Source: Fimbriimonadaceae bacterium
Lineage (GTDB): Bacteria; Armatimonadota; Fimbriimonadia; Fimbriimonadales; Fimbriimonadaceae
Direction: 5' to 3'
Length of the DNA stretch: 60,266 bases
NCBI GenBank assembly: GCA_046597875.1
Contig: JBKJJL010000224.1
Span: forward strand, 1-60,266
The notes beneath the pieces were generated by a model. The model did no database searches. It was given only the letters and a program-made list of their open reading frames with translations, and had not been told where the DNA came from. Positions within the stretch are counted from its first letter, which is position 1; every line of letters starts with the position of its first letter. The translations under genes were made by a program, and so were the position numbers. This document shows positions 165 to 36,566 of the stretch, one piece after another.

Positions 165-1550
165 ATGCCCGAAACCCTGCTTCATCCCTCATCGCTCACC
201 CACACAAGCCGGCCCAAAGAGCGCCGGGGGACGTACTTTGTCCAAACCTGGGGTTGCCAGATGAACGAAGAAGACAGCGAGCAACTCGGGCTCCACCTTC
301 AGGCGATCGGCTTCGAGCCGACTGATTCCATCCTCGAAGCGCACGTCATTTTGCTCAACACTTGCAGCGTGCGCCGCAAGCCTGAGGACAAGGCATTTTC
401 GATGCTCGGGGAACTTGTGCCCCTTAAAGAGTTCCGGCAAGACATCGTCATTGGGGTCTGCGGTTGCATGGCTCAGCTCCGCGCGGACGAGATCAGACGT
501 CGGGCTCCCCACGTGGACTTCGTCCTCGGTACGGGCGACATTTCCAAGGTTGGCGGGCTCGTCGAAGAGGCACTCCAGGGCAGGCGATTCGCCAAGCGCA
601 TCGAACTTCCGGAGCGCAAGGGCGCGATTGTCACCGACGTCCCCGATCGCGAAGTCCATCGCATTGGGAAACTCAAGGCTTACGTTCCAATCCAATACGG
701 ATGCGATAAGTTCTGCACATTTTGTATCGTGCCCACCACCCGAGGCCGCGAGCGCAGCCGCCCCACCGAGGATATCGTCAGGGAAGTCCAGCTTCTCGTC
801 GAACGAGGCACGCGCGAAGTCACTCTCCTGGGCCAAACCGTCAACTCCTATGGCAAGAACCTCGCCGAAGGCCGCGTCCCTTTCGGCGAACTCCTTAACG
901 TACTCTCGGAAATCGAGGGTCTCCAAAGGATTCGCTATACAAGCCCTTATCCTCGGGATTTCAAGAGCGACCTCATCAACGTAATCCGTGACAACTCAAA
1001 GGTCATGGAGCATGTCCACATGCCCGCTCAGTCTGGCAATGACGAAGTCCTTCGGCGCATGAAACGCCAATACACGAGGGCAGGATTCTTGGAGATCGTG
1101 AAGAACCTACGCGAGTCTATCCCTGGGATGACGCTTACCACCGACGTCATCGTCGGATTCCCCGGTGAAACGGAAGAGCAGTTCCAAGATACGGTGTCCC
1201 TCTTCGAAGAAGTGCGCTTCGATGGCGCCTACATGTTTATCTACAGCCCTCGCCCTGGGACCCCGGCGGGCGACATGGAGCAACTCCCCCTCCACGTTCG
1301 AAAGGACCGCCTGGATCGCCTCATGGTCCTTCAGAACCAGATCACCCTCGAAGGCAACCAAGCCCTTGTTGGTAGAACGTTCGAGGTCTTGGTAGAGGGA
1401 CCTTCCCCCCGCAACGCGAGCCGCCTTCAGGGTTATTCGCGGGAATGCAAGATGATGCACTTCGAGGGCGACCCTGCGTCTGTCGGTAGCCTGGTCCAGG
1501 TGAGGGCAACTGAAGGCCATCTGTGGGGACTCTTGGGAACCCCGATCTAA
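165..1550 (+). CDS. miaB: tRNA-2-methylthio-N6-dimethylallyladenosine synthase MiaB (radical SAM methylthiotransferase)
   Basis: 461-aa ORF. N-terminal MTTase motif YFVQTWGCQMNEEDSE, radical-SAM CxxxCxxC (YGCDKFCTFCIVP) and a C-terminal TRAM-like segment (VGRTFEVLVEG). Confidence 0.9.
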   Translation: MPETLLHPSSLTHTSRPKERRGTYFVQTWGCQMNEEDSEQLGLHLQAIGFEPTDSILEAHVILLNTCSVRRKPEDKAFSMLGELVPLKEFRQDIVIGVCGCMAQLRADEIRRRAPHVDFVLGTGDISKVGGLVEEALQGRRFAKRIELPERKGAIVTDVPDREVHRIGKLKAYVPIQYGCDKFCTFCIVPTTRGRERSRPTEDIVREVQLLVERGTREVTLLGQTVNSYGKNLAEGRVPFGELLNVLSEIEGLQRIRYTSPYPRDFKSDLINVIRDNSKVMEHVHMPAQSGNDEVLRRMKRQYTRAGFLEIVKNLRESIPGMTLTTDVIVGFPGETEEQFQDTVSLFEEVRFDGAYMFIYSPRPGTPAGDMEQLPLHVRKDRLDRLMVLQNQITLEGNQALVGRTFEVLVEGPSPRNASRLQGYSRECKMMHFEGDPASVGSLVQVRATEGHLWGLLGTPI

Positions 1551-1750
1551 GGGCACGGAATAGTGCTGACCCGTTGATTCTACGGGAGGCTCGCACAGGC
1601 GCGGAGTTTGTCTGTGCTGTTCCTGACCATGTGCCGCTCGCCCTTTACGATTTCCTTACGGATCAGACGCGGTGACTTATGTTTGCGTGCGCTGTTCCCG
1701 CGTCATCCGATGTAATGGGCACGAAGAAGAGCCCGAAAAGGAGAAATCAA

Positions 1751-2131
1751 ATGCCAGAACCTACAGATAATCGACAACAAGGCGGACAAAACTTCGGAGA
1801 CATGGGGACCTCGAAGCAAGGCGAAGGAGAGCGCTTCAATCCGGGACCAGAAGAGCAGACGACTAACAATCAGGGTGACGAGTGGAGCGGTCTTCCGGGA
1901 ACAGAGAAGAACCCAAGTAAAGAGAGCAATCAGTGGGAAGGAGAGCCCCTCCAAAAGGATAATGAGGACAAACCTCAGAACGAGGACCGAACTGGAAACC
2001 AAGGCCATACAGGAAAGCAATGGGACGGGCAAACCGGCACAAAGGAGAGCGGCTGGCAGAACCAGGACGCCAAATCTGGCGGGCAACGCCAAGACGCCGA
2101 AGCGGGCAAGGCACGAAACGGGCCCGAGTAA
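1751..2131 (+). CDS. hypothetical highly hydrophilic G/Q/N/E/K-rich protein, probably disordered
   Basis: ATG at 1751 has AAGGAG 8 nt upstream; the longer track ORF from 1679 has no such RBS. 126 aa with no hydrophobic core and four W-x-G/N motifs (DEWSG, NQWEG, KQWDG, SGWQN). No family recognised. Confidence 0.45.
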   Translation: MPEPTDNRQQGGQNFGDMGTSKQGEGERFNPGPEEQTTNNQGDEWSGLPGTEKNPSKESNQWEGEPLQKDNEDKPQNEDRTGNQGHTGKQWDGQTGTKESGWQNQDAKSGGQRQDAEAGKARNGPE

Positions 2132-2220
2132 CAGGGAGTGACCTCTCTACCCCACGAGAAAGGCCACGGCACAAGCCGTGGCCTCTTCGTAACATCGACC
2201 CTCCAACATCACACTTAGCA

Positions 2221-3729
2221 ATGAGTCTCCAAAATAACGAATCAATCTGGATAAGTTCGACCGACCAGCCGGAAACGCCCAACTCAAAGTCTCAGGGGAC
2301 GTATGACGTTGTCATCGTGGGCGCCGGCATCGTTGGCGTCAGCCTCGCGTACCGCCTTCGCAAGAGTGGAAGTCGGGTACTTCTTGTGGAAGCGCTGAAC
2401 GTGTTGCGCGGTGTCACGGGCTTCACTACCGGGAAGCTTACGGCCCAACATGGACTGATCTACTCCAAAGTTCGCAAGAGCCAAGGCGATGATACTGCCC
2501 GTACTTATAACCAGGCCCAACAGTGGGCGATTGAGCAAGTTGACTCGCTCGTACGCGAACATGCGATCGCGTGTGATCTCTGCGTGGATGATGCTCACAT
2601 TTACTCCACTGAGGAAGCAAATGATGCCTCTATGGAGGAGGAATCGGCAGCGTATCGAGATTTAGGAATCGAGGGAGAACTGGTCGCACCAACTGGCTGT
2701 CCAGAAGGAGCGCGCAAGCTGTTGAGAATGCGGAATCAGCGGCACTTTCACCCGCGCAATTTTTTGCTAAAATTGCTCGAACTCGCTATCGCTGACGGCG
2801 TCCATGTAATTTCAAAGAATCGAGTGCTCAAGGTAACCGAAGAGCAAGATTGTTGCGTCATTGAAACTGAAAGGGGAACGATACGTGCGCAGCAGGTCGC
2901 GGTCACTTCGCATTATCCGGTGCACGATTCAGGGCTATTCATCGCAAAACTCTCGCCGATTCGATCCTATGCCGCCGCTTTCCGTTATGGTTCCGACCGA
3001 TCCGAAGGTATGTTCATTACCCACGATGATGAACCTCTCCGATCTTGGAGGCCGGCAAAGTTTTACAACGAGGATGTGCTCATCGTTGGCTCGGTCCATC
3101 ATAAAGTCGGTGAAGCACCCGACGAAGGCGACGCTTACGCAGAACTTGAAGCATGGGCCAGGAAAACGTTCACTCTAAAGGAGCGTGTAGCGCGCTGGTC
3201 AACGCAAGATAACTGGACGCCCGATGATCTTCCTTTCATAGGCAAATCGCCGAATCGCGAGCGAGTTCTCCTTGCCGCCGGTTTTGGTGGTTGGGGAATG
3301 ACGAACGGAATTGTGGCGTCTCACTTGCTGGCGGATGCAGTTGAGGGTCGTGATAATCCTTGGGCAGACGTGTTCAGCCCCGGCCGTCTGAATCTCGGTA
3401 TGGTTCCCAAGCTTGTAAAGGAAAACCTCGGAACTGTTTCGCATTTAGTGGGCGATAAGGTTGCACGGGTTCCGGAACTAGATCCAGACTCGGTTCCAGT
3501 TGGCGAAGGAGCGATCGGTATGATTGGCTCTAACCGGCGCGCGATTTACAATGACCCGCATGATGGAGTGTGCATTCTCAATCCCCGTTGCACCCATATG
3601 GGTTGTCAGCTGATGTGGAACACGTTAGAAAGTACGTGGGATTGCCCGTGTCACGGTTCGCGGTTTACCGCCACTGGAGAGGTGATACACGGACCCGCGG
3701 TAACTGCCCTCGAGTTGATCGTGGCCTAG
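2221..3729 (+). CDS. FAD-dependent oxidoreductase fused to a C-terminal Rieske [2Fe-2S] domain
   Basis: ATG at 2221 (MSLQNNES) preferred over the track start at 2020, which overlaps the upstream gene. Rossmann GxGxxG (YDVVIVGAGIVGVS) and Rieske CxH...CxxH (CTHMGCQL...CPCHGSRF). Confidence 0.8.
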   Translation: MSLQNNESIWISSTDQPETPNSKSQGTYDVVIVGAGIVGVSLAYRLRKSGSRVLLVEALNVLRGVTGFTTGKLTAQHGLIYSKVRKSQGDDTARTYNQAQQWAIEQVDSLVREHAIACDLCVDDAHIYSTEEANDASMEEESAAYRDLGIEGELVAPTGCPEGARKLLRMRNQRHFHPRNFLLKLLELAIADGVHVISKNRVLKVTEEQDCCVIETERGTIRAQQVAVTSHYPVHDSGLFIAKLSPIRSYAAAFRYGSDRSEGMFITHDDEPLRSWRPAKFYNEDVLIVGSVHHKVGEAPDEGDAYAELEAWARKTFTLKERVARWSTQDNWTPDDLPFIGKSPNRERVLLAAGFGGWGMTNGIVASHLLADAVEGRDNPWADVFSPGRLNLGMVPKLVKENLGTVSHLVGDKVARVPELDPDSVPVGEGAIGMIGSNRRAIYNDPHDGVCILNPRCTHMGCQLMWNTLESTWDCPCHGSRFTATGEVIHGPAVTALELIVA

Positions 3730-4158: not shown

Positions 4159-6639
4159 TCATTTTCCGCTAGGCGTCACGTATTTCATCAACCACGGGAC
4201 CCATCTGGACCACATATCTTGAAGCGTCTCCTTCGCGATCTGGCCGTGGTCTTCATAAGGATACATGTAGAGGGCGGCGGGTTTGCCGATGCTTTCTAGC
4301 ACGTGGAACATCCGCTCGGAGTTGATTGGATTGGTGCCGACGTTCTGATCCTCCATGCCGCAATACATGAGCAAAGCGCCGGTTATGTTCTCCGCGTAGA
4401 GCATCGCCGACATGTTCATGTAGGTCTCACGCGCCTCAAAGAGGGTGCGGGTTTCGCTTTGGAAGGACATCGGCGTGAGCGAGCGGTTGTAGTTGCCCGC
4501 GCCTGCAATGCCGGCCTTAAAGAAGGGCGTGTGGACGAGCGCGTTGCCGGTGCTGAACCCGCCGTAGCTATGGCCCCCGATTGCAAGCTTGGATCTATCA
4601 ATGAGGCCCCGACGCTCTAGCTCGTCGATTGTGGCCGACAGGTTGTTTCTCAGGTCGTTCACGTAAAAGTCGTTCATACGGCCCGCGGGACCGACGATGG
4701 GGCAATCGGGCTCCACGAACGCGTATCCGTATCGGGTGAGCAGGCTCATGCTATTCGGCGACACGTTAGGAAACAGGTTCTTGTTGTAAGTTCTTTGTCC
4801 GCGATCGTAGGCGGCTTGGTCGGTGAACTCGCCGGGATAGAACCAGAACATGGCAGGGAGTTTCATTCCTTCGAATCCCCACTTGGGAGCGGTGACTTTG
4901 ACCCAAAACTTGAAGCCGTCCGGACGGGTGACCTGAATGCGATACCGCTTCGCCGCGGTGATGTCGGGCGCGTAATCCTTGTTGTCGGTCAGTTTCCGAG
5001 CCTTCGCGTTGTTCTCGAAGAGGTAGGAGTTGCTGATTTCAGTTGGCGACTGGCGATCCACGATGAGCATCGCTCCGTCCTCACTGAGGAACGAGCTTGC
5101 GGTCTCATAGGCATCGGCAGGGCTTTCGAAGATGCGCGTGGTTTTTGCATTGGCCACATCGACTCTGTCGAGAAACGGTCTTGGAGCGTCCTTCATCGGA
5201 TCGGCTGGTGTTACGCTTCCGCGCAAGAAAACCATGCCGTTTGCTTCTCGCACGACCGGCCTCCCCAATGGGCCATCTCGTAGAACGAGACTGCCCGGAT
5301 TCTTCCCCGTTTCGCTGGTTCGATAGCTGTACACCGGCTTCTTACTGATCCCGAAGATCTGATTCAGCGTCTCGGTTCCGCTCACGGTTTCGGAAATGTA
5401 AAGGGTTTTTCCGTCCGCCGAGTACTGAACCGAGCCAATCCCGGTATCACTTTGGTAAATCGTTTTGATGTCGTCTTTTCCGAAAGGCGCGACCCACTGG
5501 ACAAGTTTTTCCTTCCGTGGAGCCGTCGCAGCCTGGCCTCCTCTGCCCCGACCTCCTTGCTCGTCATCATCCTCACTTCTCGGAGTTGGAACCGGTGCGG
5601 CTGCGGGGCCGTCGGCGGCGATGTAACCAAGACCATTGCCATCGGGTCGCCAGGCCAAACCACGCCGAGGATCAGCGGCGGGAGTTGGCGTGTCGGTATC
5701 GGCAAAGGTTAGACGTCGGTTTGACAGTTCCACAAGCATCTTGCCGTCCATATCCCAAATCTCTTCCTTCGATCCAAAGCCGGAGACGGGAACGAGGTAG
5801 GAGAAGGGCTTCTGAATCATCGTTACGCGCACGAAATCGCCCTTTGGAGAGGGGTCAAACGATCGAATCATCGCGGGCGCGCCAATCGATTTGGTCTTGC
5901 CGGTTGAAACGTCGACTTTGACAAGCTGGCCGAGCGCGTAGTACTCGAGAATCCCTTCATCTTCCTTGGTCGACATCAGATTGCGATACGTACGCAGACG
6001 ATTCTTGGCGGCATCGGATACATGCACGCGGGGTTGGGACGCCACTTCTGGACGCGCAGGAGCTTTTCCTCGCTTTTCCGGAATCGCGACCAGGAAAATC
6101 GACTGCCCATCGCCGCTCCAAGCGTAGCGAGCGAACGTCCCCAGCACTGGGCGATCCACAAGACGACGCGATTTTCCTGAGTCCAAATCGTATACAAAAA
6201 CCTGAGTTGAATCCACGAAATGGATGGAGTAGGCGATGCGTGTACTGTCGCTCGACCAATCTGCGTCGCCAATACGCCCGCCCCGAGGAGCTTCAATGCG
6301 TTTGCGTGTCCAGTCGGACGAATCGACAATGGTCAACGCTACTGCACCCCGTAAAGTGTCAGCACGTTCACGATCCGCAGTAAAGTCAACTTGCACGCCG
6401 CCAAGATTGTAGTTGGGTTTGGCCAGATCGGCCAGACGCGGCATGCCAGCAGATTCGCTCAACAGGAAATACCGATCGTTCGGGCTCTGATTGGTCATCA
6501 GGGTATTCAAATGCCGAGGAGCATCGAGGAACGATTGAATCTCCTTCGGAGCAGGCTGATAGCTTTGAGCATCCAGCGGCCCCGACTGGGCATTCGACAG
6601 ACCGGCAACGAAAACGACAAAAAGAGCGAAACTGCGCAC
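4159..6639 (-). CDS. secreted S9 family (prolyl oligopeptidase-type) serine peptidase
   Basis: 826 aa. Signal peptide MRSFALFVVFVAGLSNAQS, propeller-like N-terminal half, C-terminal alpha/beta-hydrolase with nucleophile elbow GGHSYGG and a late ...YPYEDHG. Confidence 0.85.
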   Translation of the reverse strand: MRSFALFVVFVAGLSNAQSGPLDAQSYQPAPKEIQSFLDAPRHLNTLMTNQSPNDRYFLLSESAGMPRLADLAKPNYNLGGVQVDFTADRERADTLRGAVALTIVDSSDWTRKRIEAPRGGRIGDADWSSDSTRIAYSIHFVDSTQVFVYDLDSGKSRRLVDRPVLGTFARYAWSGDGQSIFLVAIPEKRGKAPARPEVASQPRVHVSDAAKNRLRTYRNLMSTKEDEGILEYYALGQLVKVDVSTGKTKSIGAPAMIRSFDPSPKGDFVRVTMIQKPFSYLVPVSGFGSKEEIWDMDGKMLVELSNRRLTFADTDTPTPAADPRRGLAWRPDGNGLGYIAADGPAAAPVPTPRSEDDDEQGGRGRGGQAATAPRKEKLVQWVAPFGKDDIKTIYQSDTGIGSVQYSADGKTLYISETVSGTETLNQIFGISKKPVYSYRTSETGKNPGSLVLRDGPLGRPVVREANGMVFLRGSVTPADPMKDAPRPFLDRVDVANAKTTRIFESPADAYETASSFLSEDGAMLIVDRQSPTEISNSYLFENNAKARKLTDNKDYAPDITAAKRYRIQVTRPDGFKFWVKVTAPKWGFEGMKLPAMFWFYPGEFTDQAAYDRGQRTYNKNLFPNVSPNSMSLLTRYGYAFVEPDCPIVGPAGRMNDFYVNDLRNNLSATIDELERRGLIDRSKLAIGGHSYGGFSTGNALVHTPFFKAGIAGAGNYNRSLTPMSFQSETRTLFEARETYMNMSAMLYAENITGALLMYCGMEDQNVGTNPINSERMFHVLESIGKPAALYMYPYEDHGQIAKETLQDMWSRWVPWLMKYVTPSGK

Positions 6640-6743
6640 GCCTATTTATAGCACTTCTTCACTGAAGGTTCTTGATCCTGTCCTCCTTTTGTTTCTCCGA
6701 TCGTTATGAAACATAGAGGTTGCGACGATGCGTCCTAAGCTGT

Positions 6744-7634
6744 ATGAAGCGATTGGCTCTCGGAATCGTCGCCATGGTGGGAGTTGCAGTTGGGACCGCT
6801 TGTCTGTCGGCCGTAGGCTCGCAATACCCCATGGTCCACGTCGCCTCCGAAGAAGTCGCGATCATTTATGATGCACGTACTCAAACAGAACACTTCATCC
6901 GGAAGGCGAAATTTGATAGCGAGGCGCCCGATTTCGCGTTTGTGGCCCCGACTCCTTCTCGGCCCGAACTTGGGGAGGCGGATTCGGCGTTATTCACACT
7001 CCTGAGGAAGTTCGTCCCGCCGCCACCGCGAAACGAGGGCGGCGGGTTGGATCGCCGAGCGGGCGGGGGCAGAGAACCTGCCGTGCAAGTAATCGAGACC
7101 AAGGATGTCGCTGGAATGCGGGCCACGATCCTGAAGGCTCGCAAAGCCGCGGACCTTCAGAAGTGGCTCCGGGCGAACGGCTACGCAACGCCGGTTGGGT
7201 TTACCGATTGGGTCCGCCCCTACCTGGTCGGCGATTGGCACCTAACCGCGTTCAAGTTTATCAAGAAAGGCGAGAGCGCGGACGTGAGCACCAAGTCGAT
7301 ACGGCTGAGCTTCAAAACGGATCGTCCCTACTATCCTTATCGGATACCGAAGGGAGAAAACCCATTCGGGCGCGACCTACGCATCTATGTCGTCGCTCCG
7401 TTTCCAGTAGACGCAAAGACGGGCAACATGCCCAGAACTCGCCAGCTATTTCATGCGGGCGCACTGCCCGATGAGACCTACCTTCGTCTGCTTGCACTGG
7501 GGCAAATCGACCCGGATCTCGCGGGACCACGGGCCGTGCTGACGATCTTTAGCGACAGCGGAGACGAACGCGCAGGGGCGGATGACCTCTGGTTTACCGC
7601 TTCTTCATCATCCGCCAGCCGGTCTTTGCCTTAA
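6744..7634 (+). CDS. hypothetical secreted protein (DUF2330-like)
   Basis: Start taken at MKRLALGIVAMVGVAVG (signal-like). Block EEVAIIYDARTQTEHFIRKAKFDSEAPDFAFVAPTPSRPEL resembles DUF2330 proteins; the assignment is by memory only. The last ~40 nt overlap the tail of the convergent GNAT pseudogene. Confidence 0.5.
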   Translation: MKRLALGIVAMVGVAVGTACLSAVGSQYPMVHVASEEVAIIYDARTQTEHFIRKAKFDSEAPDFAFVAPTPSRPELGEADSALFTLLRKFVPPPPRNEGGGLDRRAGGGREPAVQVIETKDVAGMRATILKARKAADLQKWLRANGYATPVGFTDWVRPYLVGDWHLTAFKFIKKGESADVSTKSIRLSFKTDRPYYPYRIPKGENPFGRDLRIYVVAPFPVDAKTGNMPRTRQLFHAGALPDETYLRLLALGQIDPDLAGPRAVLTIFSDSGDERAGADDLWFTASSSSASRSLP

Positions 7635-8020
7635 ATCCCAGCTTCGCGTTGATGGCTCGCATGGGTGCGTTTCGATCGTCGTTGAATGTGTGCATGCGAA
7701 GGCCACCTTCCGCCTTAGGCCCAGCGAATGCCTATCTTGAGGGGCCTCGCTGACCTCGATCAGGCGTCTTCCGAGTACTTGTCGCTGCGACGCATCAGCA
7801 ACCTCCGCGCGCACCATAAAAAATCTTCTTCTCGACTGGCACGTGGACCGAGTTCGCATAGGCGACGACGGCCCCCTGCGAAACCTCAAGAACCCATCTG
7901 GCGAACGGGAACTCCTTCGGAATAGCGCTCGGGGGATGATGGCTTTTCTCCTCTTCGTTGAAAGGATTTGGTAGCAAGGAATCTTTCTTTGGCCGGGCCA
8001 AACGGCGTAGACCGCCTGCT
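7594..8020 (-). pseudogene. decayed paralogue of the GNAT gene at 9810..10742 (frameshifted, ~480-bp internal deletion)
   Basis: Nucleotides 7579-7730 align to 9795-9946 (first 47 nt identical, ~90% overall by eye) and ~7735-7975 align to ~10425-10660. Homologous peptide is split over two frames (KEFPFARWVLEVSQGAVVAYANSVH in ORF 7795..8067; VRAEVADASQRQVLGRRLIEV in ORF 7608..8153). The 5' limit is approximate. Confidence 0.75.
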
Positions 8021-8038: not shown

Positions 8039-8698
8039 TTAGTAGTAAGAAGGAAATATCCAAGCAATTCGTGAGAGGCCGCCGGTCGTCACCCTCTCCT
8101 TTGTCAGCAGACGATATTTCCCATCTGCCGAAATCTTTTCGACGACTAGGCACAAATTCCCAAGACTTGGAATCGTGGGAAGCGGAAGCATTAAAAGCCT
8201 TCGCACGTAGAAATGACCATCCTTGCCGGTCCAGGTAACTGATCCTGTGGGCTTAAGCGAGTCTCCCACCACGCCGCAGTACCCGTTAGGGCTATCTTTG
8301 AGAGAAGCTAAAAGTAGCTGGTCACCGTAAGTCCAGTCTAAGCCCAGGCTGCCACGGGATCTCACTTCGATCCCCATCGTATTTCCTAAGCAATGGGCCG
8401 TGCGAGGCGTTGTGAACAGCCGAACGTACCTCAAGGCTTCGGCTGCATCCCGCAAAGTGACATGCCCTGCCAATAAGTTAGGGAACGAAACTTCCGTGCG
8501 CCGTTTTGACCCTATCAGGATTAACTTCTCTGAGGCCTCTTGTGGTGAGCTTGGTGAATAGGAAATCACGAGCTTCCCTTTTAGGCTTAACTTCGCCGCA
8601 ATGGGTTCTGTCTGCGTCATGCTTTCGAGGAGAGCTCGGCGCGAAAGTGTTTGAGAGTTCAAGGCGAAAGTATGCAGGGCAAGGGTTAGTAGCAGCAT
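8039..8698 (-). CDS. hypothetical exported protein; candidate immunity partner of the upstream Rhs tip
   Basis: 219 aa. The ATG lies 6 nt after the Rhs-tip stop, and the GGAGG in the last Rhs codons is placed as its RBS. Hydrophobic N-terminus MLLLTLALHTFA. No family recognised. GC is lower than the flanks. Confidence 0.5.
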   Translation of the reverse strand: MLLLTLALHTFALNSQTLSRRALLESMTQTEPIAAKLSLKGKLVISYSPSSPQEASEKLILIGSKRRTEVSFPNLLAGHVTLRDAAEALRYVRLFTTPRTAHCLGNTMGIEVRSRGSLGLDWTYGDQLLLASLKDSPNGYCGVVGDSLKPTGSVTWTGKDGHFYVRRLLMLPLPTIPSLGNLCLVVEKISADGKYRLLTKERVTTGGLSRIAWIFPSYY

Positions 8699-8704
8699 TA
8701 GAAT

Positions 8705-9652
8705 TTAGCCTCCACTCGCGGACCCCTGCTTGAATTTAAACTTGCATTCGGGGAGCGGATTATCTGGGTTCGTTTTCCACGGTGCCGGCAACTCATTGCA
8801 TATTTTTTTTATCTGCCGGGCATCGCTGTCATAATGGCTAATAAGTGTTCTGCACATAAGGTCCGTTGACTTCCTCGTACATTTTTTTCTCCTGATGGTT
8901 TCCTCGAAACACCGCCGGGAAACCTTATAAGCACGGCATTCCGAGATTAGATTGGCTTGCTTAAACCAAACGAGGTACGTGTTTGTGCATTCGAAGCCCC
9001 CCGGGAGAATCAGGCCATTCGGAAGCATAAAGGAATCTAGGCATTCCTTTAACTTCATACAACATGCAGCATAATCTGTCCTATGCTGTTCTTCGTGTTG
9101 TACGATGCAATTGTTCAGGTAATGCGTCTTGGGTAAGCATATCCAGGCATAAGGGATTCCGGTGTCTGAGTTGCAGGCCGTAACGGCGATTCCGGTTGTC
9201 GGTTCCGCTCTGATAGGTATTCCGATAGAGTAACATCGGGGCACCTTTTGTTCCCCAACCGGGTCGAGGTCAGTGGTCGGATTGTTTCCGACATAGCCAT
9301 ATGGTGCCTCTCTCGGCCATAAAGAATCGCGCGTAGTCCAACCGGCACTCTCCGATCCATAATGCCGAGCCAAATTGTACTGTTCAGCGTGAGCAAGGCC
9401 ACTTGCCCGGCTCCCGGTATCCCCCGCCCACAGAAACTTGGGATCCGGCCCGCCTCCCGTTTTGGCAAGAAGGGCTCCAAATGGCTTGTGGCGGTAGGTA
9501 TTGACAACATCCGCATTCGAATCAACCGTCGCTGTGATACTGCCAAGGCCGTCCGTGAGGTAGTTGGTCCTCACGCCGTTCGTTGTCTCTCCCCTAAGCT
9601 TGCCGTTGACTGTGTGGTAGTTGGTTACGGGCACTGTATCTTCTCCTACCAT
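8705..9652 (-). CDS. RHS repeat-associated core domain protein with Cys-rich HExxH C-terminal tip (orphan Rhs/YD toxin module)
   Basis: 315 aa. Rhs core pattern YLTDGLGSITATVD..NTYRHKPFGALL..FLWAGDTG..YNLARHYGSESAGWTTRDSLWP..YGYVGNNPTTDLDPVG. This is followed by ~180 aa with 14 Cys and HEEQH. No YD-repeat shell or N-terminal domain is present. Confidence 0.75.
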   Translation of the reverse strand: MVGEDTVPVTNYHTVNGKLRGETTNGVRTNYLTDGLGSITATVDSNADVVNTYRHKPFGALLAKTGGGPDPKFLWAGDTGSRASGLAHAEQYNLARHYGSESAGWTTRDSLWPREAPYGYVGNNPTTDLDPVGEQKVPRCYSIGIPIRAEPTTGIAVTACNSDTGIPYAWICLPKTHYLNNCIVQHEEQHRTDYAACCMKLKECLDSFMLPNGLILPGGFECTNTYLVWFKQANLISECRAYKVSRRCFEETIRRKKCTRKSTDLMCRTLISHYDSDARQIKKICNELPAPWKTNPDNPLPECKFKFKQGSASGG

Positions 9653-9809
9653 CGGACATTACCACAATGTTTCCCTCGCTGATACTTTATTTTTTCCGCA
9701 GCATTGCGGCGTTTGCTCGGAATTTGGTTGTTCTTTTGCGAGGTCAAGTTGTCGAGGCCCAAGTCAGTCATGCTGGAGCATCGATGGCCTGGAGCGGATG
9801 ACCTCTGGT

Positions 9810-10742
9810 TTACCGCTTCTTCATCATCCGCCAGCCGGTCTTCGCTTCAAATCCCAGCTTCGCGTTGATGGCTCGCATGGGGGCGTTTCGGTCATCGTTG
9901 AACGTGTGCATGCGAAGGCATCCTTCCACGTTCGCCCAGCGGATGCCGGCCACCTTGAGCGCCATCGCAATGCCTCTTCCGCGGTGGCTTTGTACAACAC
10001 CAGTGAAGTCGGTCGTAAAATCGCCTCCCGACAGCGGACCCACCAGCGAAAGCCCAACCCAATCCCCATCGGCTCCAACCGCGATGATGCACCCCTCCGG
10101 GCGGAACCATCTCGCGTTGAAGATCGAAGGCTCCCATTCGTCAAACCCCGATTGTCCCCAAAGTTCTATTCCAGGCGTGTCCGAATCCGTTGAATAGTAG
10201 AGGTCAAACAGTTTCCGCCGGTTTGCCGGAGTATCACCTTGGACTTGCCATGAAGTCAGGTTTGCGCCGGGCCGGCTGGGATCCGTCCAGTTCTGGATAT
10301 CCAGCTCAACTCCATACAAGTGCTGTTCTTGCTCGTAGCCCGCGGCTTCTAGAAACCGGCGTTCCCGGTCGAGGTCGTCGCGGACCTTCGACATGAGCCA
10401 CTCCGCCTCGTGCTCCCTCGCGAATGCTTCTGCGACTTCGATCAGTCGCCTGCCTATGCCCTGTCGCTGCCATGGATCAGCAACCTCGGCGCGTACGAGG
10501 AAAATCTTCTTGTCGACCTGCGCGTGTACCGAGTTTGCATAGGCGACGACGTCCCCGGTCGAGTTTTCAAGGACCCACCGCGCGACCGGAAACTCCTTCG
10601 GATATCGCTCAAACCGGGCGCTCAAGGAATCTGGCGTCTCGGGCTCTTGCTCGAATCGGTTGAAGAGATCTGCCACTGTCGCCGCATCCCGGACTTCGTA
10701 CGGCCGAAGTCGAAGCCCTAATGGGAACTCATTTGAACTCAT
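9810..10742 (-). CDS. two-domain GNAT family N-acetyltransferase
   Basis: Start at MSSNEFPLGLRLRPYE (10742). Two acetyl-CoA-binding cores: VADPWQRQGIGRRLIE and VQSHRGRGIAMALK. Confidence 0.8.
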   Translation of the reverse strand: MSSNEFPLGLRLRPYEVRDAATVADLFNRFEQEPETPDSLSARFERYPKEFPVARWVLENSTGDVVAYANSVHAQVDKKIFLVRAEVADPWQRQGIGRRLIEVAEAFAREHEAEWLMSKVRDDLDRERRFLEAAGYEQEQHLYGVELDIQNWTDPSRPGANLTSWQVQGDTPANRRKLFDLYYSTDSDTPGIELWGQSGFDEWEPSIFNARWFRPEGCIIAVGADGDWVGLSLVGPLSGGDFTTDFTGVVQSHRGRGIAMALKVAGIRWANVEGCLRMHTFNDDRNAPMRAINAKLGFEAKTGWRMMKKR

Positions 10743-10786
10743 AAGCTCTATTGTGTCTGGTCGAATGTGCCGATAGGAATAATGAT

Positions 10787-11242
10787 ATGTTGGGCTTGTT
10801 CTTCTATACGGCAATGGCAGCGATCGCATCGGTGCTGCTTACGTTCATCTACTCGATGTTTCGGACGGTGAAATCGCGGGATGAATACAAGTCGTGGAAG
10901 ATCATGGTGATCTTCTTCGCGCTCGTCTTCTTCGGTCCTTATGGATACAACGAGTTTCTGACTCGCAAACTTGGGCCGGGCCTCAAGTCAGCGGTCGCGG
11001 ATGCTCTCTATGACGCGGGCGTCAACGGGAAAATCAACTATTTCAGAGTCGTCTCGACCAAAGGTGATACGGCCCGAGTGGTGGCGGTGACAACAGAGAA
11101 TCAAGACTGGGGCGGCACCGAGCGGCCAGTCGTGGCGGTCACGGTGAAGAAAGACCCGAAAGGCTGGAAGTCCGACACCTACATCGTGGTCAACTCAATA
11201 AGCCGCAATGCGGACAGTTATACGTTTCCGCCTTACTTTTGA
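10787..11242 (+). CDS. hypothetical membrane protein (two N-terminal TM helices)
   Basis: Start at MLGLFFYTAMAAIASVLLTFIY. Second TM segment WKIMVIFFALVFFGPYGY. No family recognised. Confidence 0.5.
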   Translation: MLGLFFYTAMAAIASVLLTFIYSMFRTVKSRDEYKSWKIMVIFFALVFFGPYGYNEFLTRKLGPGLKSAVADALYDAGVNGKINYFRVVSTKGDTARVVAVTTENQDWGGTERPVVAVTVKKDPKGWKSDTYIVVNSISRNADSYTFPPYF

Positions 11243-30257: not shown

Positions 30258-32501
30258 ATGCTTGCATTGCTTGCTGCAACTCTCTTGGCTGCGCCGAATG
30301 ACCTCGCTGAGGCCTACAAACGTGCGGATGCACTCCCGGCATTGACGCGCGGGAAGGCGTTGAACCTGACCCTCGCGCCTAACTGGATTGGGACGGACGC
30401 ACTTTGGTATCGGGCAGAACGGAAAAACGGAGGGAGCGAGTACATCGTTGCCACGCTGAACGGATCCAAGCGGCCCCTCTTCGACCACACTCGCTTGGCC
30501 GACGCTTTGGCAAAGTTGGGGACGGAGAAGGTTGATTCCGCGAAACTTGCCCTTACGAACTTGGAGGTCGCTGGGGACCTTAACTCAATGGCGTTCACTT
30601 ACGCCACTAAGCGGTACACCGTCAGCTTCTCGGATTACGTTGTGAAGTTATCGGGAACGCAGAGCACGGTCCAAGAAGCGGCGTCCGAAGTGCCGGACGA
30701 GGAAGCCACGTTCACCGAGTTTCCCGTTCCGCGAGCAGGAGCCACGCTCAGCCAGCAAACCCCGCGGAGCAACGACTCCCCTGACGGTAAATGGACCGTT
30801 GCTGTCGCTGATGGCGTCGTCAAAGTGACGCCGAAAGCGGGTGGAGATGCGATCACCCTTTCCCAAACGCCAGGATTCACGCAAGCGCGTTGGTCGAGAG
30901 ATTCGAGATATCTTGTCGGGATGCGTCTGCTTCAAGGCGAGCGCAAACAAGTTCATCTATTGGCCTCTTCGCAACGTGCGGCGACCCGGGCCCAGCTTCA
31001 GAGTCGGTTCTACGATCAACCGGGAGATGTTCTGGATCGCTACGAACCGTACGTGTTCGATGTCGCCGCGAAAACCGAGAAAAAAGTGGACGTCGAACCC
31101 ATCATGGGCGGCGGGCAACCTTGGGCGGGCCCTCCCGGAGTGGATATGCGCGACGGGCGTTTCATGATGGACTACCCCGAGCGCGGTTATCAGAGGTTCC
31201 ACGTCGTCCAGGTCGATTTCGCAACTGCAAAGGCAACCCATTTGGTCGACGAATCTTCACCGACGTTCTTTGACAATACGAACGCGATTCTACGGGTCAT
31301 TGAGCCTTCGAATGAACTCCTCTGGCGTTCCGAACGTGACGGTTGGGGCCATCTGTACTTGTTAGATGGAACGACGGGAGCGGTCAAGAATCAGGTCACG
31401 AAAGGTGACTGGGTAGTCCGCTCCGTTGATAACGTCGACGAGAAAGAGCGAACCCTGACCTTTATGGCAAACGGTCGTGAACCGGGCGATCCTTACCTGC
31501 AATACCTGTACCGGGCAAACTTGGATGGCACCGATCTAAAGGTGCTGACTCCAGGACAGGGCAACCACCGGGTGGTCTGGGCGCGGGATCGAAAGAGCTT
31601 CATTGACACCTATTCTCAAATCAACGTGCCGCCCGTTCACGAATGGCGAAGGGCGGATGGAACCCTCGTCTCTGAACTGGAGAAGGCGGACATAAGCGGT
31701 CTTGCCGAGTTCAAGTTGAAACCTGCCGAACCATTCGTCGCAAAGGGCCGCGATGGAACCACCGACATTTGGGGCATCGTCGTAAAACCCACGAACTTTG
31801 ACCGGCGCAAGAAGTATCCGGTGATCGAGAACATCTACGCGGGACCGCATGATTCACACGTGCCCAAAACATACTTCCCGCTTTTGCGGATGCAGCGGCT
31901 TGCCGAGTTAGGATTCATCGTCGTCCAGATTGACGGCATGGGCACTCGAAATCGGGGCAAGAAGTTTCACGATGTTTGTTGGCAGAACCTCGCCGACGCA
32001 GGATTTCCGGATCGTATTTCCTGGATGAAAGCCTTGGCCGCCAAGGATAAATCGGTTGATATCTCGCGGGTGGGCGTCTACGGAACCTCGGCCGGGGGCC
32101 AGAATGCCGCCGCAGCTCTCCTGTTCCACCCGGACTTTTACAAGGTTGGCGTCGCCTCATGCGGGTGCCACGATAACCGGATCGACAAGCAGTGGTGGAA
32201 CGAGCAATGGATGGGCTACCCGGTGGGCCCGCATTATGCGAAGCAGTCGAATATTGATAACGCGGGGAACTTGAAAGGGAAGTTGCTCTTGATCGTTGGC
32301 GAACTCGATCGCAACGTGCCTCCAGAGTCAACGATCCGCTTTGCGGATGCTTTGCAGAAGGCGAAGAAAGAGTTTGATTTTGTCGTCATTCCGGGCGCTG
32401 ACCACACCGACGGAGGGGATTACGGCGAACGCAAGCGCAGAGATTTCTTCGTGCGGTGGCTGCTGGGTAAGGAGCCGCCAGAGTGGAACTCGGCAAAGTG
32501 A
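30258..32501 (+). CDS. S9 family peptidase, dipeptidyl-peptidase IV-like
   Basis: 747 aa with a signal-like N-terminus, a DPP-IV-type propeller half and a C-terminal hydrolase with GVYGTSAGGQNA, ...GELDRNV... and GADH. Confidence 0.85.
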   Translation: MLALLAATLLAAPNDLAEAYKRADALPALTRGKALNLTLAPNWIGTDALWYRAERKNGGSEYIVATLNGSKRPLFDHTRLADALAKLGTEKVDSAKLALTNLEVAGDLNSMAFTYATKRYTVSFSDYVVKLSGTQSTVQEAASEVPDEEATFTEFPVPRAGATLSQQTPRSNDSPDGKWTVAVADGVVKVTPKAGGDAITLSQTPGFTQARWSRDSRYLVGMRLLQGERKQVHLLASSQRAATRAQLQSRFYDQPGDVLDRYEPYVFDVAAKTEKKVDVEPIMGGGQPWAGPPGVDMRDGRFMMDYPERGYQRFHVVQVDFATAKATHLVDESSPTFFDNTNAILRVIEPSNELLWRSERDGWGHLYLLDGTTGAVKNQVTKGDWVVRSVDNVDEKERTLTFMANGREPGDPYLQYLYRANLDGTDLKVLTPGQGNHRVVWARDRKSFIDTYSQINVPPVHEWRRADGTLVSELEKADISGLAEFKLKPAEPFVAKGRDGTTDIWGIVVKPTNFDRRKKYPVIENIYAGPHDSHVPKTYFPLLRMQRLAELGFIVVQIDGMGTRNRGKKFHDVCWQNLADAGFPDRISWMKALAAKDKSVDISRVGVYGTSAGGQNAAAALLFHPDFYKVGVASCGCHDNRIDKQWWNEQWMGYPVGPHYAKQSNIDNAGNLKGKLLLIVGELDRNVPPESTIRFADALQKAKKEFDFVVIPGADHTDGGDYGERKRRDFFVRWLLGKEPPEWNSAK

Positions 32502-32515
32502 CACCACGAAGCTCC

Positions 32516-33256
32516 ATGAGGGAAGACCGCGTGTTTAGCGAGCAGGAAGTCGCCGAGATCATGCGGCGAGCGGTGACACTTCAGGAGACCGCTAAGGAAG
32601 GCGGCGCCGAATACCGACCGGGTGTTACCAAGGCCGAACTCCAACGTGCGGCGAAGGAAATGGGGGTTGATCCCGCATTCTTGGAACAAGCGATTCTTGA
32701 GAAGCTTGACGGTGTTCCCGCCAAGCATCATGGCTACTTGCCCGAGGAGCAACGCGTCGTGGAGGGCGAACTCGACCCTGCCGACTTTGACATCATCCTC
32801 GATCAAATTAAGACCCGAGCACGAAGCCGGAATCCGATTACCCAGGTTGGCAGAAGCCTGCGAGGGCAAACGTTTACCGGCTCGGGGCTCGCAAATCTGG
32901 AAATCACTTCTCGAAACGGCCGCACTCGGATTAACCTGAAGCCGTTTCCGGTATTTGAGATTTTGGGGACTTTCTATCCCGCGTTCCTGGTCAGCATGAT
33001 AGCGGGTGGTTCACTCGCCCAGCATGGCATGGGTGGCATCGCGACCGCGGTGGCGGGCGGCGCGTTTGGGCTGGCCATTCTCGGATTTCGACAGTGGATA
33101 TCGAAGTCTCGCGAGGCGACGGCCCGGCTGGCGGACAAATTGCAAAGCGCGGTCAGCGATCATGTTGGGAAAGACTTGCGAGAGAACTTGGGCGCCGTGC
33201 CTGCCGCCGAGGAATCTAAGGAGAACGCGGACATCGAACAAAATCAATCCACCTAG
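32516..33256 (+). CDS. hypothetical membrane protein
   Basis: Start at MREDRVFSEQEVAEIMRRA. Two TM helices near residues 160-215. The N-terminal module is paralogous to that of 25085..25519. Confidence 0.5.
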   Translation: MREDRVFSEQEVAEIMRRAVTLQETAKEGGAEYRPGVTKAELQRAAKEMGVDPAFLEQAILEKLDGVPAKHHGYLPEEQRVVEGELDPADFDIILDQIKTRARSRNPITQVGRSLRGQTFTGSGLANLEITSRNGRTRINLKPFPVFEILGTFYPAFLVSMIAGGSLAQHGMGGIATAVAGGAFGLAILGFRQWISKSREATARLADKLQSAVSDHVGKDLRENLGAVPAAEESKENADIEQNQST

Positions 33257-33278
33257 CGACCAAGGTAAAACGCATCCC

Positions 33279-36200: not shown

Positions 36201-36566
36201 GTACTGAAGATGAAGCTGAATCCGGGGCCGCTCACCCGGGGCATGGAAGACTACGTCGACGCGATGTTTGATGAAAGTCCCGCGTTCCGGATTGCCCCAC
36301 CCCCCACCCCCCTCCCCGCGACACAAGGCATTCGCGGAGAGGGGGAGCCACTCGTCGTTAGCTTCTTCGATACCGACAGGCCGCTGCGCTCGGGTTGGGC
36401 GTGGGGACAGGAGACGTTGAAGGGAACTGCGTCCGTGGTTGATGTGCCGTTAGGGAAGGGTAGGGTCGTCCTTTACGGGCCGGAAATTCTCTTCCGAGCT
36501 CAGAGCCACGGAACGTTCAAGCTCCTGTTCAACGCGATCTTTCGGTCGGCGAACGGGAACAGGTGA
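33279..36566 (+). CDS. secreted M14 family zinc carboxypeptidase-like protein carrying two in-frame repeat-element insertions
   Basis: ATG at 33279 gives the signal peptide MRRWLLLSLLLSSLVQA. M14 zinc site context WIDGGLHASE. The single ORF stays open through the repeat segments at 34631-34799 and 35627-35930. Confidence 0.8.
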   Translation: MRRWLLLSLLLSSLVQADKIPSPKEFLGHDVCEDYYLANYQELTAYWNELDKRSDRLSVESIGKTEDGRDQLMCVITDPGNRRNLQSYRKASERLARAKDFKNDDDARNFARKQKAIIWIDGGLHASEVLVAQQLIEMAYRLTTAQDAETKRILMDCVILLAHANPDGHDWVADHYMRRSDPKTRSAAGLPFLYQKYCGHDNNRDFYANNMAETRNINRILYSTWYPQIVYNHHQSAPAGTIMFVPPFRNPFNYHMDPMTAIATDLVGTHMHQRMIAEGKAGTAMRGSTLYSTWWNGGLRTTTYFHNMIGILTETWGSPNPGLLPFVQRFQIPSTDVPFPVEAGKMWHLRDSLEYEISANYAILDYASRYRERLLFDFYRAGRNSIERGSKDTWSRYPSRLTAGGAESLKKAENRDARMYVIPSNQPDFPTACKFVEKLMQCGIEVERIVDSGTSVSGVESGEFRVVTSASSGTGVPPVRTTSVPGLESGRQDRDDPATHDRDGHATWPVGSFVIRCDQAFRPHILDMFEPQDHPNDFQYPGGPPIPPYDNAGYTLAYQMGVRFYRVLENVLVLTERVIEVPRIAKFGAQETPTRIIFPSGELSAFAAVNVALKQGLHVTDARAFDPTIRGAKGWLNVFGESSALKKYVDNLKGGSVGALFEYCGTESPEAKLESERYFALISARDKAQPWPNPIGEQSPEVALMKKPRVALWDRYGGSMESGWTRYVLEQFAFDFDVVFPPDLDMGDLNSKYDCIILPNLAVPGPGGRVVGTGPGGETGEDDPEPSLFPRETVGDGSLAGVRVGPWLPSQWISGLDSPSPLEREQGSPVSETLSLPKGEGRGWLVPRGEGWLPTSFASFEQGVIASHPSSPSPFSPGRREGEAGAAFQGGGGAQPQSLAQDPTIPYFYRRRIGTIGEKTIKELRKFVENGGHLLCIGSSSINIARQLKLPVESALVDDKGVALPNTKFYIPGSVLKMKLNPGPLTRGMEDYVDAMFDESPAFRIAPPPTPLPATQGIRGEGEPLVVSFFDTDRPLRSGWAWGQETLKGTASVVDVPLGKGRVVLYGPEILFRAQSHGTFKLLFNAIFRSANGNR
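34631..34799. repeat. GC-rich hairpin/direct-repeat insertion inside the M14 CDS
   Basis: Internal duplication CAGTGGCAC...CACGTCCGTCyCGGGCsTGGAATCCGGA (34631-34664 and 34691-34748), plus a perfect hairpin CATGACCG-GGA-CGGTCATG (34776-34794). It encodes the low-complexity ...DRDDPATHDRDGHAT. Limits are approximate. Confidence 0.6.
35627..35930. repeat. two tandem copies of the ~150-bp composite palindromic (REP/MITE-like) element, in frame inside the M14 CDS
   Basis: Copy 2 shares the 30-nt string AACCCTCTCTCTTCCCAAGGGAGAGGGTCG with the intergenic copy at 52046-52195. The same module order follows (GGGGTGAGGGTTGG..., ...CCCCTTCTCCCCTGGGAGGAGAGAAGGGGA). Limits are approximate. Confidence 0.75.

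Follow-up and report, generated by a model that had tools for sequence, protein, structure and literature searches.

The two adjacent genes at 8705..9652 and 8039..8698 of the window (the whole stretch of DNA analysed, 60,266 nucleotides of a Fimbriimonadaceae bacterium) probably constitute a toxin-immunity cassette of a split, two-gene Rhs system typical of the Armatimonadota, the first gene supplying the proposed payload and the second the proposed immunity protein. Judged from sequence comparisons, the C-terminal tip of the first protein is a new toxin-domain family, and the Rhs to which it belongs is a new, split variant. That the tip is enzymatically active and that its protein assembles in trans with a shell is what we infer from these comparisons. 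Published accounts present Rhs toxins as single giant proteins that exchange their tips by recombination. The two genes have the following parts:

8705..9652, minus strand: core+toxin open reading frame (“mini-Rhs”), ATG at 9652 to TAA at 8705-8707, 315 aa
9643..9647, minus strand: AGGAG Shine-Dalgarno-like element, read from the sequence, 8 nt 5′ of the GTG at 9634
9254..9634, minus strand: Rhs-associated core of ~127 residues, with the last YD-type strands and the presumed aspartyl autoprotease/plug module, ending in DPVG
9254..9265, minus strand: DPVG, boundary between constant core and variable toxin, presumed autocleavage site
8708..9253, minus strand: toxin tip of 182 aa with exactly 14 Cys and one HEEQH, a HExxH(R)xD…ECxAY domain that is probably rich in disulfides
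8039..8698, minus strand: conserved partner gene, candidate exported immunity protein, 219 aa, 6 nt past the toxin stop

The core+toxin ORF runs on the minus strand, which the earlier note had not given. Because all homologues begin M-[PA]-x-T-N-Y-[YH]-T, an N-terminus conserved in 12 homologues, the true start is probably the GTG at 9634, which would give a protein of 309 aa; the database gene call for the window toxin (P0001) likewise has 309 aa. The protein begins at the core and carries no N-terminal trafficking domain (PAAR, signal peptide etc.). YD repeats are absent from the ORF, from its upstream region and from the rest of the 60-kb window, in which a motif scan gave one chance match and the large ORFs encode S9 and M14 peptidases. 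The lack of a YD shell and of an N-terminal trafficking domain, noticed earlier, is thus confirmed. Terminator and tRNA scans of the window returned nothing informative.

Matches to TIGR03696 and to PDB entries agree with the earlier recognition of an Rhs core ending in DPVG, with ~127 residues up to this motif. Residues 56-133 match NCBIfam TIGR03696 (Rhs_assc_core) with E=4.3e-7 and 30.4 bits, narrowly missing the curated cut-off of 32.5 bits, and close homologues reach 38-41 bits, above the cut-off. Residues 20-140 align with the C-terminal Rhs/YD region of the solved SGS1 (8fjp, E=5.8e-5) and of teneurin-like proteins. With tblastn against annotated Rhs-core proteins the alignment reaches residue 127 only, and the core residues D103, D124 and G127 are nearly invariant among homologues. 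The C-terminal conserved Rhs region serves as cocoon seal and aspartyl autoprotease (PMC8765631). By analogy with solved Rhs and Tc proteins, the core module would spiral into a YD cocoon, seal it and cut at DPxG as an aspartyl autoprotease. As in canonical Rhs/YD toxins such as RhsA of Pseudomonas protegens (PMC8765631), where the core ends in DPxG, a hypervariable toxin comes next and an immunity gene adjoins, the window locus appears to have its variable region directly after DPxG and a partner gene downstream. Compared with the canonical single polypeptide, the window gene has the TIGR03696 core and the DPxG but no YD shell in the same protein, and no known trafficking domain (PAAR, VgrG, signal peptide) was seen here.

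A genome scan with the whole mini-Rhs alignment yielded 36 genome loci with this core type, and the best 27 of them were examined. These 27 all carry Armatimonadota names (Fimbriimonadaceae, Chthonomonas, Armatimonas) except one, which is labelled as a Synechococcus MAG (L009), and the core is fused to a shell at none of them. In the relatives, a YD-shell gene of ~1,070-1,320 aa lies directly 5′ of the core+toxin cistron; the latter encodes ~260-365 aa, starts “MPVTNYHT…” and often overlaps the shell gene by TAATG or TGATG. YD repeats are confined to the shell ORFs and TIGR03696 to the core ORFs. The shell gene ends in …VWDGxxYLQxRS-stop at at least 15 independent loci (including the metagenome loci L003, L004, L005, L045/46 and L047), and the ATG of the core+toxin gene follows the shell stop at -1 (TAATG/TGATG), 0, 1, 4, 5, 15, 69 or 190 nt. 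We rejected recoding and sequencing error as origins of the split, since all three stop codons are in use, both spacing and frame vary, and the arrangement is seen again in independent assemblies, one of them a complete genome. At every Armatimonadota locus examined, shell and core+toxin each have a gene of their own, in the main locus and in dispersed copies alike, which distinguishes them from canonical Rhs, and the two cistrons appear to be translationally coupled in the relatives.

The earlier note had expected a full-length rhs partner. None emerged: no fused rhs was found in related Armatimonadota genomes, and the main locus is itself split. Fused shell-core versions exist outside Armatimonadota, and one fused relative (P0014) reads ‘…VWDGQNVLQERSVTNVRLAQYT…’ across the same shell/core junction. 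The relatives' shell proteins show only Pfam RHS_repeat and no recognisable signal peptide. No secretion system, PAAR or VgrG was found on or beside the shell genes, whose neighbours encode only a GT2+TPR protein, a methyltransferase-like protein and a NifU-like protein. A literature search on Rhs in Armatimonadota and on split or bipartite Rhs genes gave nothing relevant.

Judged by its sequence, the gene in the window is a complete representative of the stand-alone core+toxin class; it lies away from any shell gene and is no truncated fragment. No identical copy turned up in a metagenome scan. The displaced toxin module proposed earlier therefore stands in that the gene is core-only and away from any shell gene, but not in that a truncated fragment would need recombination into a full-length rhs. 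One related MAG holds at least 8 cassettes whose first ~300 nt are 88-100% identical; dispersed and shell-linked cassettes of this MAG have equally similar cores (88-100%). Nucleotide identity between the relatives' cassettes collapses near DPxG, to ~25% in this MAG. Multiple alternative cassettes in one genome, nearly identical in the core and unrelated in the tip, are likewise a feature of canonical Rhs and of orphan rhs-CT/rhsI modules (PMC3150448), and published orphan modules are thought to act as a reserve (PMC3150448). The window cassette might be silent, its toxin not deployed here but kept as raw material for recombination behind a shell, with only the immunity protein mattering as a guard against neighbours firing the same toxin. 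Its position away from any shell gene would suit this role, as would the result that a scan covering one promoter type found no sigma-70-like promoter for the cassette. Orphan copies in relatives also retain short ‘…VWDG..YLQGRS-stop’ remnants of the shell-gene 3′ end, which together with the near-identical cores make good recombination substrates. However, published orphan rhs-CT fragments mostly lack initiation signals (PMC3150448), whereas the window gene and nearly all dispersed relatives keep a conserved start codon of their own, a Shine-Dalgarno-like element (AGGAG in the window) and a full-length ORF. Recombination behind a shell would moreover leave the mode of protein production unchanged, because the shell-adjacent copy is itself a separate cistron. 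We therefore regard a silent reserve as rather unlikely and prefer a complete, stand-alone core+toxin cistron.

The tail behind the core, estimated before at ~180 aa with 14 Cys and one HEEQH, proved to be as described, with an exact length of 182 aa. Its placement outside every known toxin family was upheld in Pfam, NCBIfam, PADLOC, the PDB and BFVD. The window proteins and all family members gave no match to the tip in Pfam, NCBIfam or PADLOC, and a profile search against PDB sequences gave only a chance CP12 match (E=0.57). When the tip alone or the partner protein alone was compared with a k-mer index of 5.8 billion proteins, each matched only itself. A profile search of the 5.8-billion-protein set found only 15 unnamed proteins; an exhaustive HMMER scan gave 52 representative proteins with the tip, ~50 of them real relatives (best E=2.6e-12). 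The family shares the signature C..C-x3-C-x3-HExxH(R)xD-x3-CC…ECxAY…CPF, of which the window tip lacks the C-terminal CPF. In 46/46 aligned homologues the tip has H53 and E54, and nine further columns are likewise invariant; H57 is kept in at least 90% of them, conservation is also at least 90% at each of E105, C106, A108 and Y109, and it reaches at least 70% at D60. The HExxH is thus no chance occurrence, being conserved among homologues, a point the earlier note had left to be checked.

The tip domain is found behind Rhs cores and also behind eCIS (DUF4157-type) leaders in contractile-injection gene clusters. About half of the family carries ‘LQRxxGN’/‘QRKCACGG’ leaders or eCIS_core domains, and two members (P0058, P0059) are encoded in eCIS clusters at a place flanked by the AAA ATPase and the spike, with eCIS_core genes around them. 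According to Geller et al. (2021, PMC8213781), eCIS toxins are borne at the C-terminus of proteins with a DUF4157 N-terminus, and the tip family resembles these toxins in its leaders and in the two members within the eCIS cargo region. Unlike them, the window protein has an Rhs core and not an eCIS leader as its N-terminal module, and its tip is unrelated to the HExxH domain of DUF4157: PF13699 (eCIS_core/DUF4157) did not match the tip in any of 51 members, and a divergent DUF4157 was rejected as an identity for the tip (hhalign probability 1.4%, aligning the HExxH alone). The eCIS versions of the tip have no adjacent gene of the immunity-partner family. The tip is a putative toxin-domain family without described relatives, carried by two unrelated delivery systems, Rhs and eCIS. 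The novelty claimed for it holds for the family, which is undescribed, but the window tip is not isolated, being one member of a family seen in metagenomes, including in eCIS cargo positions.

The AlphaFold model of the tip, a confident one (pLDDT 90.8, pTM 0.86), shows three long helices on a small sheet, with HExxH and ECxAY on consecutive long helices:

9083..9097, minus strand: HEEQH, tip residues 53-57, followed by R58-T59-D60, candidate metal/catalytic site on predicted helix 47-74
8927..8941, minus strand: ECRAY, tip residues 105-109 on predicted helix 85-122, with E105 as candidate third metal ligand and Y109 as candidate transition-state residue

An invariant His-Glu pair is typical of a catalytic site. 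Gluzincins use HExxH plus a downstream Glu, and some toxins of the type also use a Tyr; the HExxHxxD…E of the tip is reminiscent of the neprilysin/thermolysin type, which is a lead. Like gluzincin metallopeptidases, the tip has the HExxH on a predicted helix with a conserved Asp three residues on, a next helix on which a Glu and, one turn later, a Tyr are conserved (E105 and Y109 in the model), and a small beta-sheet that precedes. Unlike them, it resembles no solved zincin in sequence or fold, its helices are very long and it contains ~12 conserved cysteines in disulfide-like pairs. Foldseek of the model gave no match in the PDB (best E=0.6, TM <0.3) or in BFVD (best E=0.47), and the weak neighbours are only helical bundles and BAR-type domains. 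Across Foldseek against the PDB and BFVD, Pfam, NCBIfam and PDB profiles, neither a zincin fold nor similarity to a known peptidase family was found for the tip. It is therefore the motifs alone that suggest a peptidase, as Foldseek recognises no zincin, nor anything else.

Cys71 and Cys89 are missing jointly in 9/9 cases in the family, and Cys45 and Cys133 jointly in 3 of 3-4 cases, one of them the window protein, which would thus lack one family disulfide. Since cysteines are lost in pairs, this points to disulfides between the tip cysteines. Of the disulfide-rich, zincin-like effector suggested earlier, the paired cysteine loss and the HExxH on a predicted helix support the idea, but a zincin fold was not recognised. 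Action outside the cytoplasm, also suggested earlier, is plausible given the paired cysteine loss and the signal-peptide or lipobox-like N-termini of the partner proteins. Cargo of eCIS is generally held to work in the cytoplasm of the target, a poor match for a fold that depends on disulfides.

The same model leaves room for a non-enzymatic tip, in which a disulfide-locked helical bundle damages or binds membranes or another target and the HExxH is a structural metal site or a binding surface. Such a bundle would agree with the three long helices on a small sheet and their bundle-like neighbours, with the Gly-zipper (membrane-type) insertion present in three family members, and with one member (P0054) that lacks the second His of the HExxH. 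We consider it unlikely, as the invariance of H53 and E54 and the strong conservation of H57, E105, Y109 and D60 argue against it, and the i/i+4 spacing on two consecutive predicted helices fits a metal centre. The payload is most likely a metal-dependent hydrolase or peptidase with ~5-7 disulfides and a signature like that of gluzincins (HExxHxxD on one helix and ExxxY on the following one), which would be active in an oxidising compartment such as the target periplasm.

The partner gene is preceded by a GGAGG that falls within the last codons of the toxin gene. Its homologues lie directly 3′ of tip-family toxins at 5 other loci (L001/L002, L003, L004, L006), which bears out its role as the cognate partner. 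The partner proteins have signal-peptide or lipobox-like N-termini, judged by eye, that of the window copy being hydrophobic. A single-sequence model predicted an N-terminal helix, at an overall pLDDT of 36.5 that makes the model unusable. Because the partner is conserved and its N-terminus is signal-peptide-like, the product of 8039..8698 is likely an exported immunity protein, which would neutralise the toxin in the oxidising compartment.

The surroundings of the two genes are marked by duplicated sequence:

9635..9790, minus strand: upstream spacer, a possible decayed shell-gene 3′ remnant (…ACATTGTGG…GATGGT…) by comparison with the remnants in relatives
9791..9947, strand not applicable: right copy of the direct repeat, which takes in the 3′ end of the intact GNAT gene
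7575..7732, strand not applicable: left copy of the direct repeat, 158 bp, 90.5% identical to 9791-9947; the repeats bracket the toxin-immunity cassette
7594..7980, minus strand: GNAT acetyltransferase pseudogene copy, frameshifted and internally deleted, forming the left border of the cassette

The intact GNAT acetyltransferase gene lies at 9810..10829. We only tentatively assign a decayed shell-gene 3′ remnant to the spacer. Direct repeats around the cassette and a degraded GNAT copy on one side might indicate that it was acquired horizontally along with part of a foreign GNAT gene and is now becoming a pseudogene; the lower GC of the tip (~0.48 against 0.56 in the flanks), the GTG in place of an ATG at the conserved start and the loss of one family disulfide and of the CPF motif could be read in the same way. 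However, both ORFs are intact and tightly coupled, all candidate catalytic residues are retained, and both cysteines of the missing disulfide are gone together, as they are in other members, so that the loss has the look of tolerated variation and not of decay. A decaying relic is thus very improbable.

For the preferred split system, the first gene would be a complete stand-alone cistron in which the ~127-residue Rhs module precedes the 182-residue payload, and the functional particle would be a two-chain cocoon of shell and core+toxin. The window copy would act either in trans, by docking onto a shell that another locus of the genome encodes, or after recombination through the conserved core. 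The nearest parallel is the BC cocoon of Tc toxins, in which the orphan TcC yenC3 assembles in trans with YenB and the TcC shell contribution amounts to ~680 residues (PMC11067744). Like TcB and TcC, the cocoon proposed here from the genes would consist of two polypeptides, with core autoprotease and payload on the second chain, and alternative second chains from other loci may serve one first chain. Unlike TcC, which supplies roughly half of the cocoon shell in addition to core and payload, the second chain in Armatimonadota gives only ~127 residues, the core, before the payload. No TcA- or TcB-like genes were found in the window or beside the relatives' shells, and neither a TcA-like translocator nor a beta-propeller gatekeeper was identified.

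A more far-reaching version is possible, though we hold it as doubtful. Armatimonadota Rhs would then be obligate two-chain cocoons, with one shell plugged in trans by several core+toxin proteins of ~260-365 aa (at least 8 in one genome) that share a near-identical docking/autoprotease module of ~100 residues. The dispersed genes would be live ammunition without DNA rearrangement, and the payload a new-fold, disulfide-stapled metallohydrolase, active once oxidised outside the cytoplasm and also adopted as eCIS cargo.

Shell and core+toxin genes that are always separate and apparently translationally coupled suggest a simpler route to arsenal diversity: different plugs could be mixed onto one shell, because each genome holds many core+toxin genes with their own start codons. 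A split Rhs would extend the TcB/TcC principle to a minimal plug of ~127 residues, which would be a small and convenient module for bringing foreign cargo into Rhs cocoons. The tip is a candidate new enzyme fold and a candidate new marker for effectors in poorly studied phyla.

The core+toxin ORF lies where the earlier note had placed it, but on the minus strand. It comprises the following features:

8705..9652, minus strand: core+toxin ORF, from the ATG at 9652 to the TAA at 8705-8707, 315 aa
9254-9265, minus strand: DPVG, the core/tip boundary
8708..9253, minus strand: toxin tip, the sequence after DPVG, 182 aa with 14 Cys and one HEEQH
9083-9097, minus strand: HEEQH, within the tip

The Rhs core pattern read from the sequence up to DPVG was confirmed by database searches. 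The NCBIfam model for the Rhs-associated core, TIGR03696, matched residues 56-133 (E=4.3e-7) with 30.4 bits, slightly under its curated cut-off of 32.5 bits, and residues 20-140 aligned to the C-terminal Rhs/YD region of the solved SGS1 (8fjp, E=5.8e-5) and to teneurin-like proteins. In tblastn searches against annotated plasmids, matches stopped at residue ~127, and the matched genes carry Rhs-core or YD annotations. Within the core, an Asp pair (D103/D124) and G127 are nearly invariant. As also noted earlier, the ORF carries no YD-repeat shell; YD repeats were absent from the ORF, its upstream region and the rest of the window. The window's large ORFs encode S9 and M14 peptidases, namely three large S9-family (prolyl oligopeptidase-type) peptidases (4159-6639, 30258-32501 and 53502-56318) and an M14 carboxypeptidase-domain protein (33006-36566), which are unrelated to the Rhs cassette. 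All 12 homologues of about 290-320 aa share the start M-[PA]-x-T-N-Y-[YH]-T. This start maps to a GTG at 9634 in the window, with AGGAG 8 nt upstream, and yields a 309-aa product, the length also given by the database gene call. The description as an orphan core-only gene stands in that there is no shell in the same chain, but given its own conserved start the gene differs from a classical orphan fragment (PMC3150448).

A genome scan with an alignment of such core+toxin proteins returned 36 loci. The best 27 carry Armatimonadota names (Fimbriimonadaceae, Chthonomonas, Armatimonas), except L009, labelled as a Synechococcus MAG, and at all 27 the core is encoded without a fused shell. A separate upstream YD-repeat ORF ends in ‘…T(T)L(V/I)WDGxxYLQxRS*’, and the core+toxin ORF has its own ATG at -1 (TAATG or TGATG), 0, 1, 4, 5, 15, 69 or 190 nt after the shell stop, for which TAA, TGA and TAG all occur. 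Complete shells (1,073-1,316 aa) gave RHS_repeat/YD_repeat matches only and lacked TIGR03696; the ORFs downstream matched TIGR03696 only. Together, the two cistrons match adjoining segments of a normal Rhs protein, because P0014, a fused 632-aa Malectin+YD protein with the tip, crosses the shell/core junction in one frame (‘…VWDGQNVLQERSVTNVRLAQYT…’) and relatives from Planctomycetota and Desulfobacter also have shell and core fused. Stop codons, spacings and reading frames differ between independent assemblies, one of them a complete genome, which rules out recoding or a sequencing error as the origin of the split. This is the main departure from the earlier view of the window gene as a displaced toxin module: in this lineage Rhs is split, with an unfused core at all 27 best loci. 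Within the library searched, no paper dealt with Armatimonadota Rhs proteins or with split rhs genes, and we rate this split architecture as previously undescribed. Armatimonadota-type core+toxin genes were also seen on contigs binned to the Synechococcus MAG (L009) and to a Methanomassiliicoccales MAG (L032), probably due to binning contamination and less likely due to transfer.

Neighbours of the relatives' shells encode a GT2+TPR protein, a methyltransferase-like protein and a NifU-like protein. Neither PAAR nor VgrG nor a signal peptide turned up on or next to these shells. The glycosyltransferase family 2 + TPR gene (~1,050 aa), preceded by the methyltransferase-like gene, lies upstream of the shell in several Armatimonadota loci, among them L017 (951-4076) and L029 (2285-5497), and is also present near L004 and L008. 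This arrangement may reflect plain conservation of gene order or a functional link.

Cassettes can be numerous within one genome. The Fimbriimonadaceae MAG TGS_ARM4 carries a shell followed by four cassettes (L008 5392-14821) and four more on another contig (L006 2-6773). Over the first ~300 nt the cassettes share 88-100% identity, which drops to ~25% near DPxG; their tips are unrelated. A number of further tips in this MAG are rich in cysteine as well, one of them with ‘HEMAHCCGVGPDGGP’, which recurs in L047. Dispersed copies often retain a short remnant of the shell gene 3′ end, and the window may, tentatively, contain a decayed remnant of this kind. The complete 2.6-Mb genome of Armatimonadetes bacterium Uphvl-Ar2 (CP021424.1; L011, L013, L014) has at least six core+toxin genes and repeated partial shell fragments (193 and 430 aa) whose N-terminal stretches are identical; the regions retrieved contained no full-length shell.

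The window cassette is bracketed by two direct repeats, 7575-7732 versus 9791-9947 (158 bp, 90.5% identity) and 7752-7930 versus 10434-10610 (179 bp, 77.7% identity). The left copy is a frameshifted, internally deleted GNAT pseudogene (7594..7980), and the intact GNAT gene lies at the right (9810..10829). The two are 51-58% identical over residues 50-140 and 92% over residues 301-339. The repeat also spans the last codons of a convergent DUF2330 gene (6720..7634). The GC content of the tip is ~0.48 (8600-9200) versus ~0.56-0.60 in flanking genes, which fits a variable region that moves horizontally. Together, the bracketing repeats, the GNAT pseudogene copy and the lower tip GC suggest that the cassette was acquired by recombination at the GNAT 3′ end.

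A k-mer-indexed protein search with the window protein returned only itself. Scanning 1.84 billion cluster representatives exhaustively with HMMER gave 52 proteins at E<=1e-3 (best 2.6e-12 at 37% identity), about 50 of which were kept after setting aside the spurious-looking P0012 and P0026. The family alignment shows the tip signature C-x(17-20)-C-x3-C-x3-H-E-x-x-H-(R)-x-D-x3-C-C … E-C-x-A-Y … C … C-C … C … C-P-F. With numbering from the residue after DPVG, C27, G32, C49, H53, E54, C64, C65, C115 and C170 are invariant, and C45, H57, E105, C106, A108, Y109, C125, C133, C134 and C152 are at least 90% conserved; the HExxH is thus conserved among homologues. Three members (P0008, P0045, P0052) carry a ~40-residue glycine-zipper (membrane-type) insertion between Cys125 and the CC pair, and one of them matches Pfam Gly-zipper_YMGG.

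In 46 sequences, C71 and C89 are each absent in nine, the identical nine. Only three or four sequences lack C45 or C133, and in three of them both are absent; the window protein (Y45, M133) is one of them. Such paired loss is what disulfides predict, so the cysteines appear to behave as disulfide pairs and the ‘missing’ cysteines of the window protein as a tolerated variant, not decay.

The earlier inability to place the tip in a known toxin family proved justified. No Pfam, NCBIfam or PADLOC model covered the tip domain in any family member, and profile searching of PDB sequences gave no match for it. A confident AlphaFold2 model from the family alignment (pLDDT 90.8, pTM 0.86) predicts three strands followed by three long helices. 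HExxH lies near the start of helix 47-74, and helix 85-122 carries E105 and, one turn away, Y109. Foldseek searches of the PDB (best E=0.6, TM below 0.3) and BFVD detected no similar structure. The tip has the HExxH motif of zincins but showed no fold or sequence similarity to them, and it is unrelated to the DUF4157 HExxH domain (hhalign probability 1.4%). We rate the tip as an undescribed toxin-domain family.

About 20 members stand behind an Rhs core (12 of the ~300-aa type, P0014 and several fragments). A further ~25 have ‘LQRxxGN’ or ‘QRKCACGG’ leaders or an eCIS_core domain (PF13699, formerly DUF4157). P0058 and P0059 lie in contractile-injection clusters among eCIS_core genes, between an AAA ATPase and spike/baseplate genes. 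DUF4157 N-termini are known to carry C-terminal eCIS toxins (Geller et al., PMC8213781). Two unrelated delivery scaffolds carry this domain as their variable C-terminus, a hallmark of polymorphic toxins that marks the tip as a toxin/effector module of this kind. In a 735-aa eCIS-cluster protein (L043 6649-8856), the eCIS_core domain is preceded by a motif resembling the tip, ‘CDLDAGKM…C..DCAKVHELSHVD’, which suggests that more divergent relatives exist.

The partner ORF (8039..8698, minus strand) begins 6 nt past the toxin stop, with GGAGG inside the toxin's last codons. No database relatives of its protein were found by k-mer search. Homologues lie directly downstream of tip-family toxins in L001/L002, L003, L004 and L006, supported by BLASTP for L002 (2e-10) and by local jackhmmer and hmmsearch for the remaining loci. 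The L006 partner ORF (736-3084) encodes 782 aa, in which the immunity-like domain occurs three times in tandem. Partner N-termini have short hydrophobic stretches, two with a lipobox-like ‘…GC’ as judged by eye. A putatively exported partner and a disulfide-stapled toxin argue for toxin action outside the cytoplasm, as first guessed.

The conserved C-terminal part of Rhs proteins winds into the cocoon and closes it, and it is also the aspartyl autoprotease by which the toxin is released (PMC8765631). Two-chain cocoons (TcB + TcC) exist, and the product of an orphan TcC gene at another locus joins YenB in trans (PMC11067744); the window protein differs from TcC in supplying the core only, and from a canonical Rhs protein in having no shell or trafficking domain in the same chain. 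We propose that the ~127-residue core would dock onto the separately made shell and cleave at DPVG, with the 182-aa payload staying inside. For the window copy, this would happen in trans or follow recombination through the core. The payload would fold with disulfides in an oxidising compartment and may act as a metal-dependent hydrolase via H53, E54, H57, (D60), E105 and Y109, and the exported partner would block it in that compartment. On this reading, the window pair works like an Rhs toxin-immunity module.
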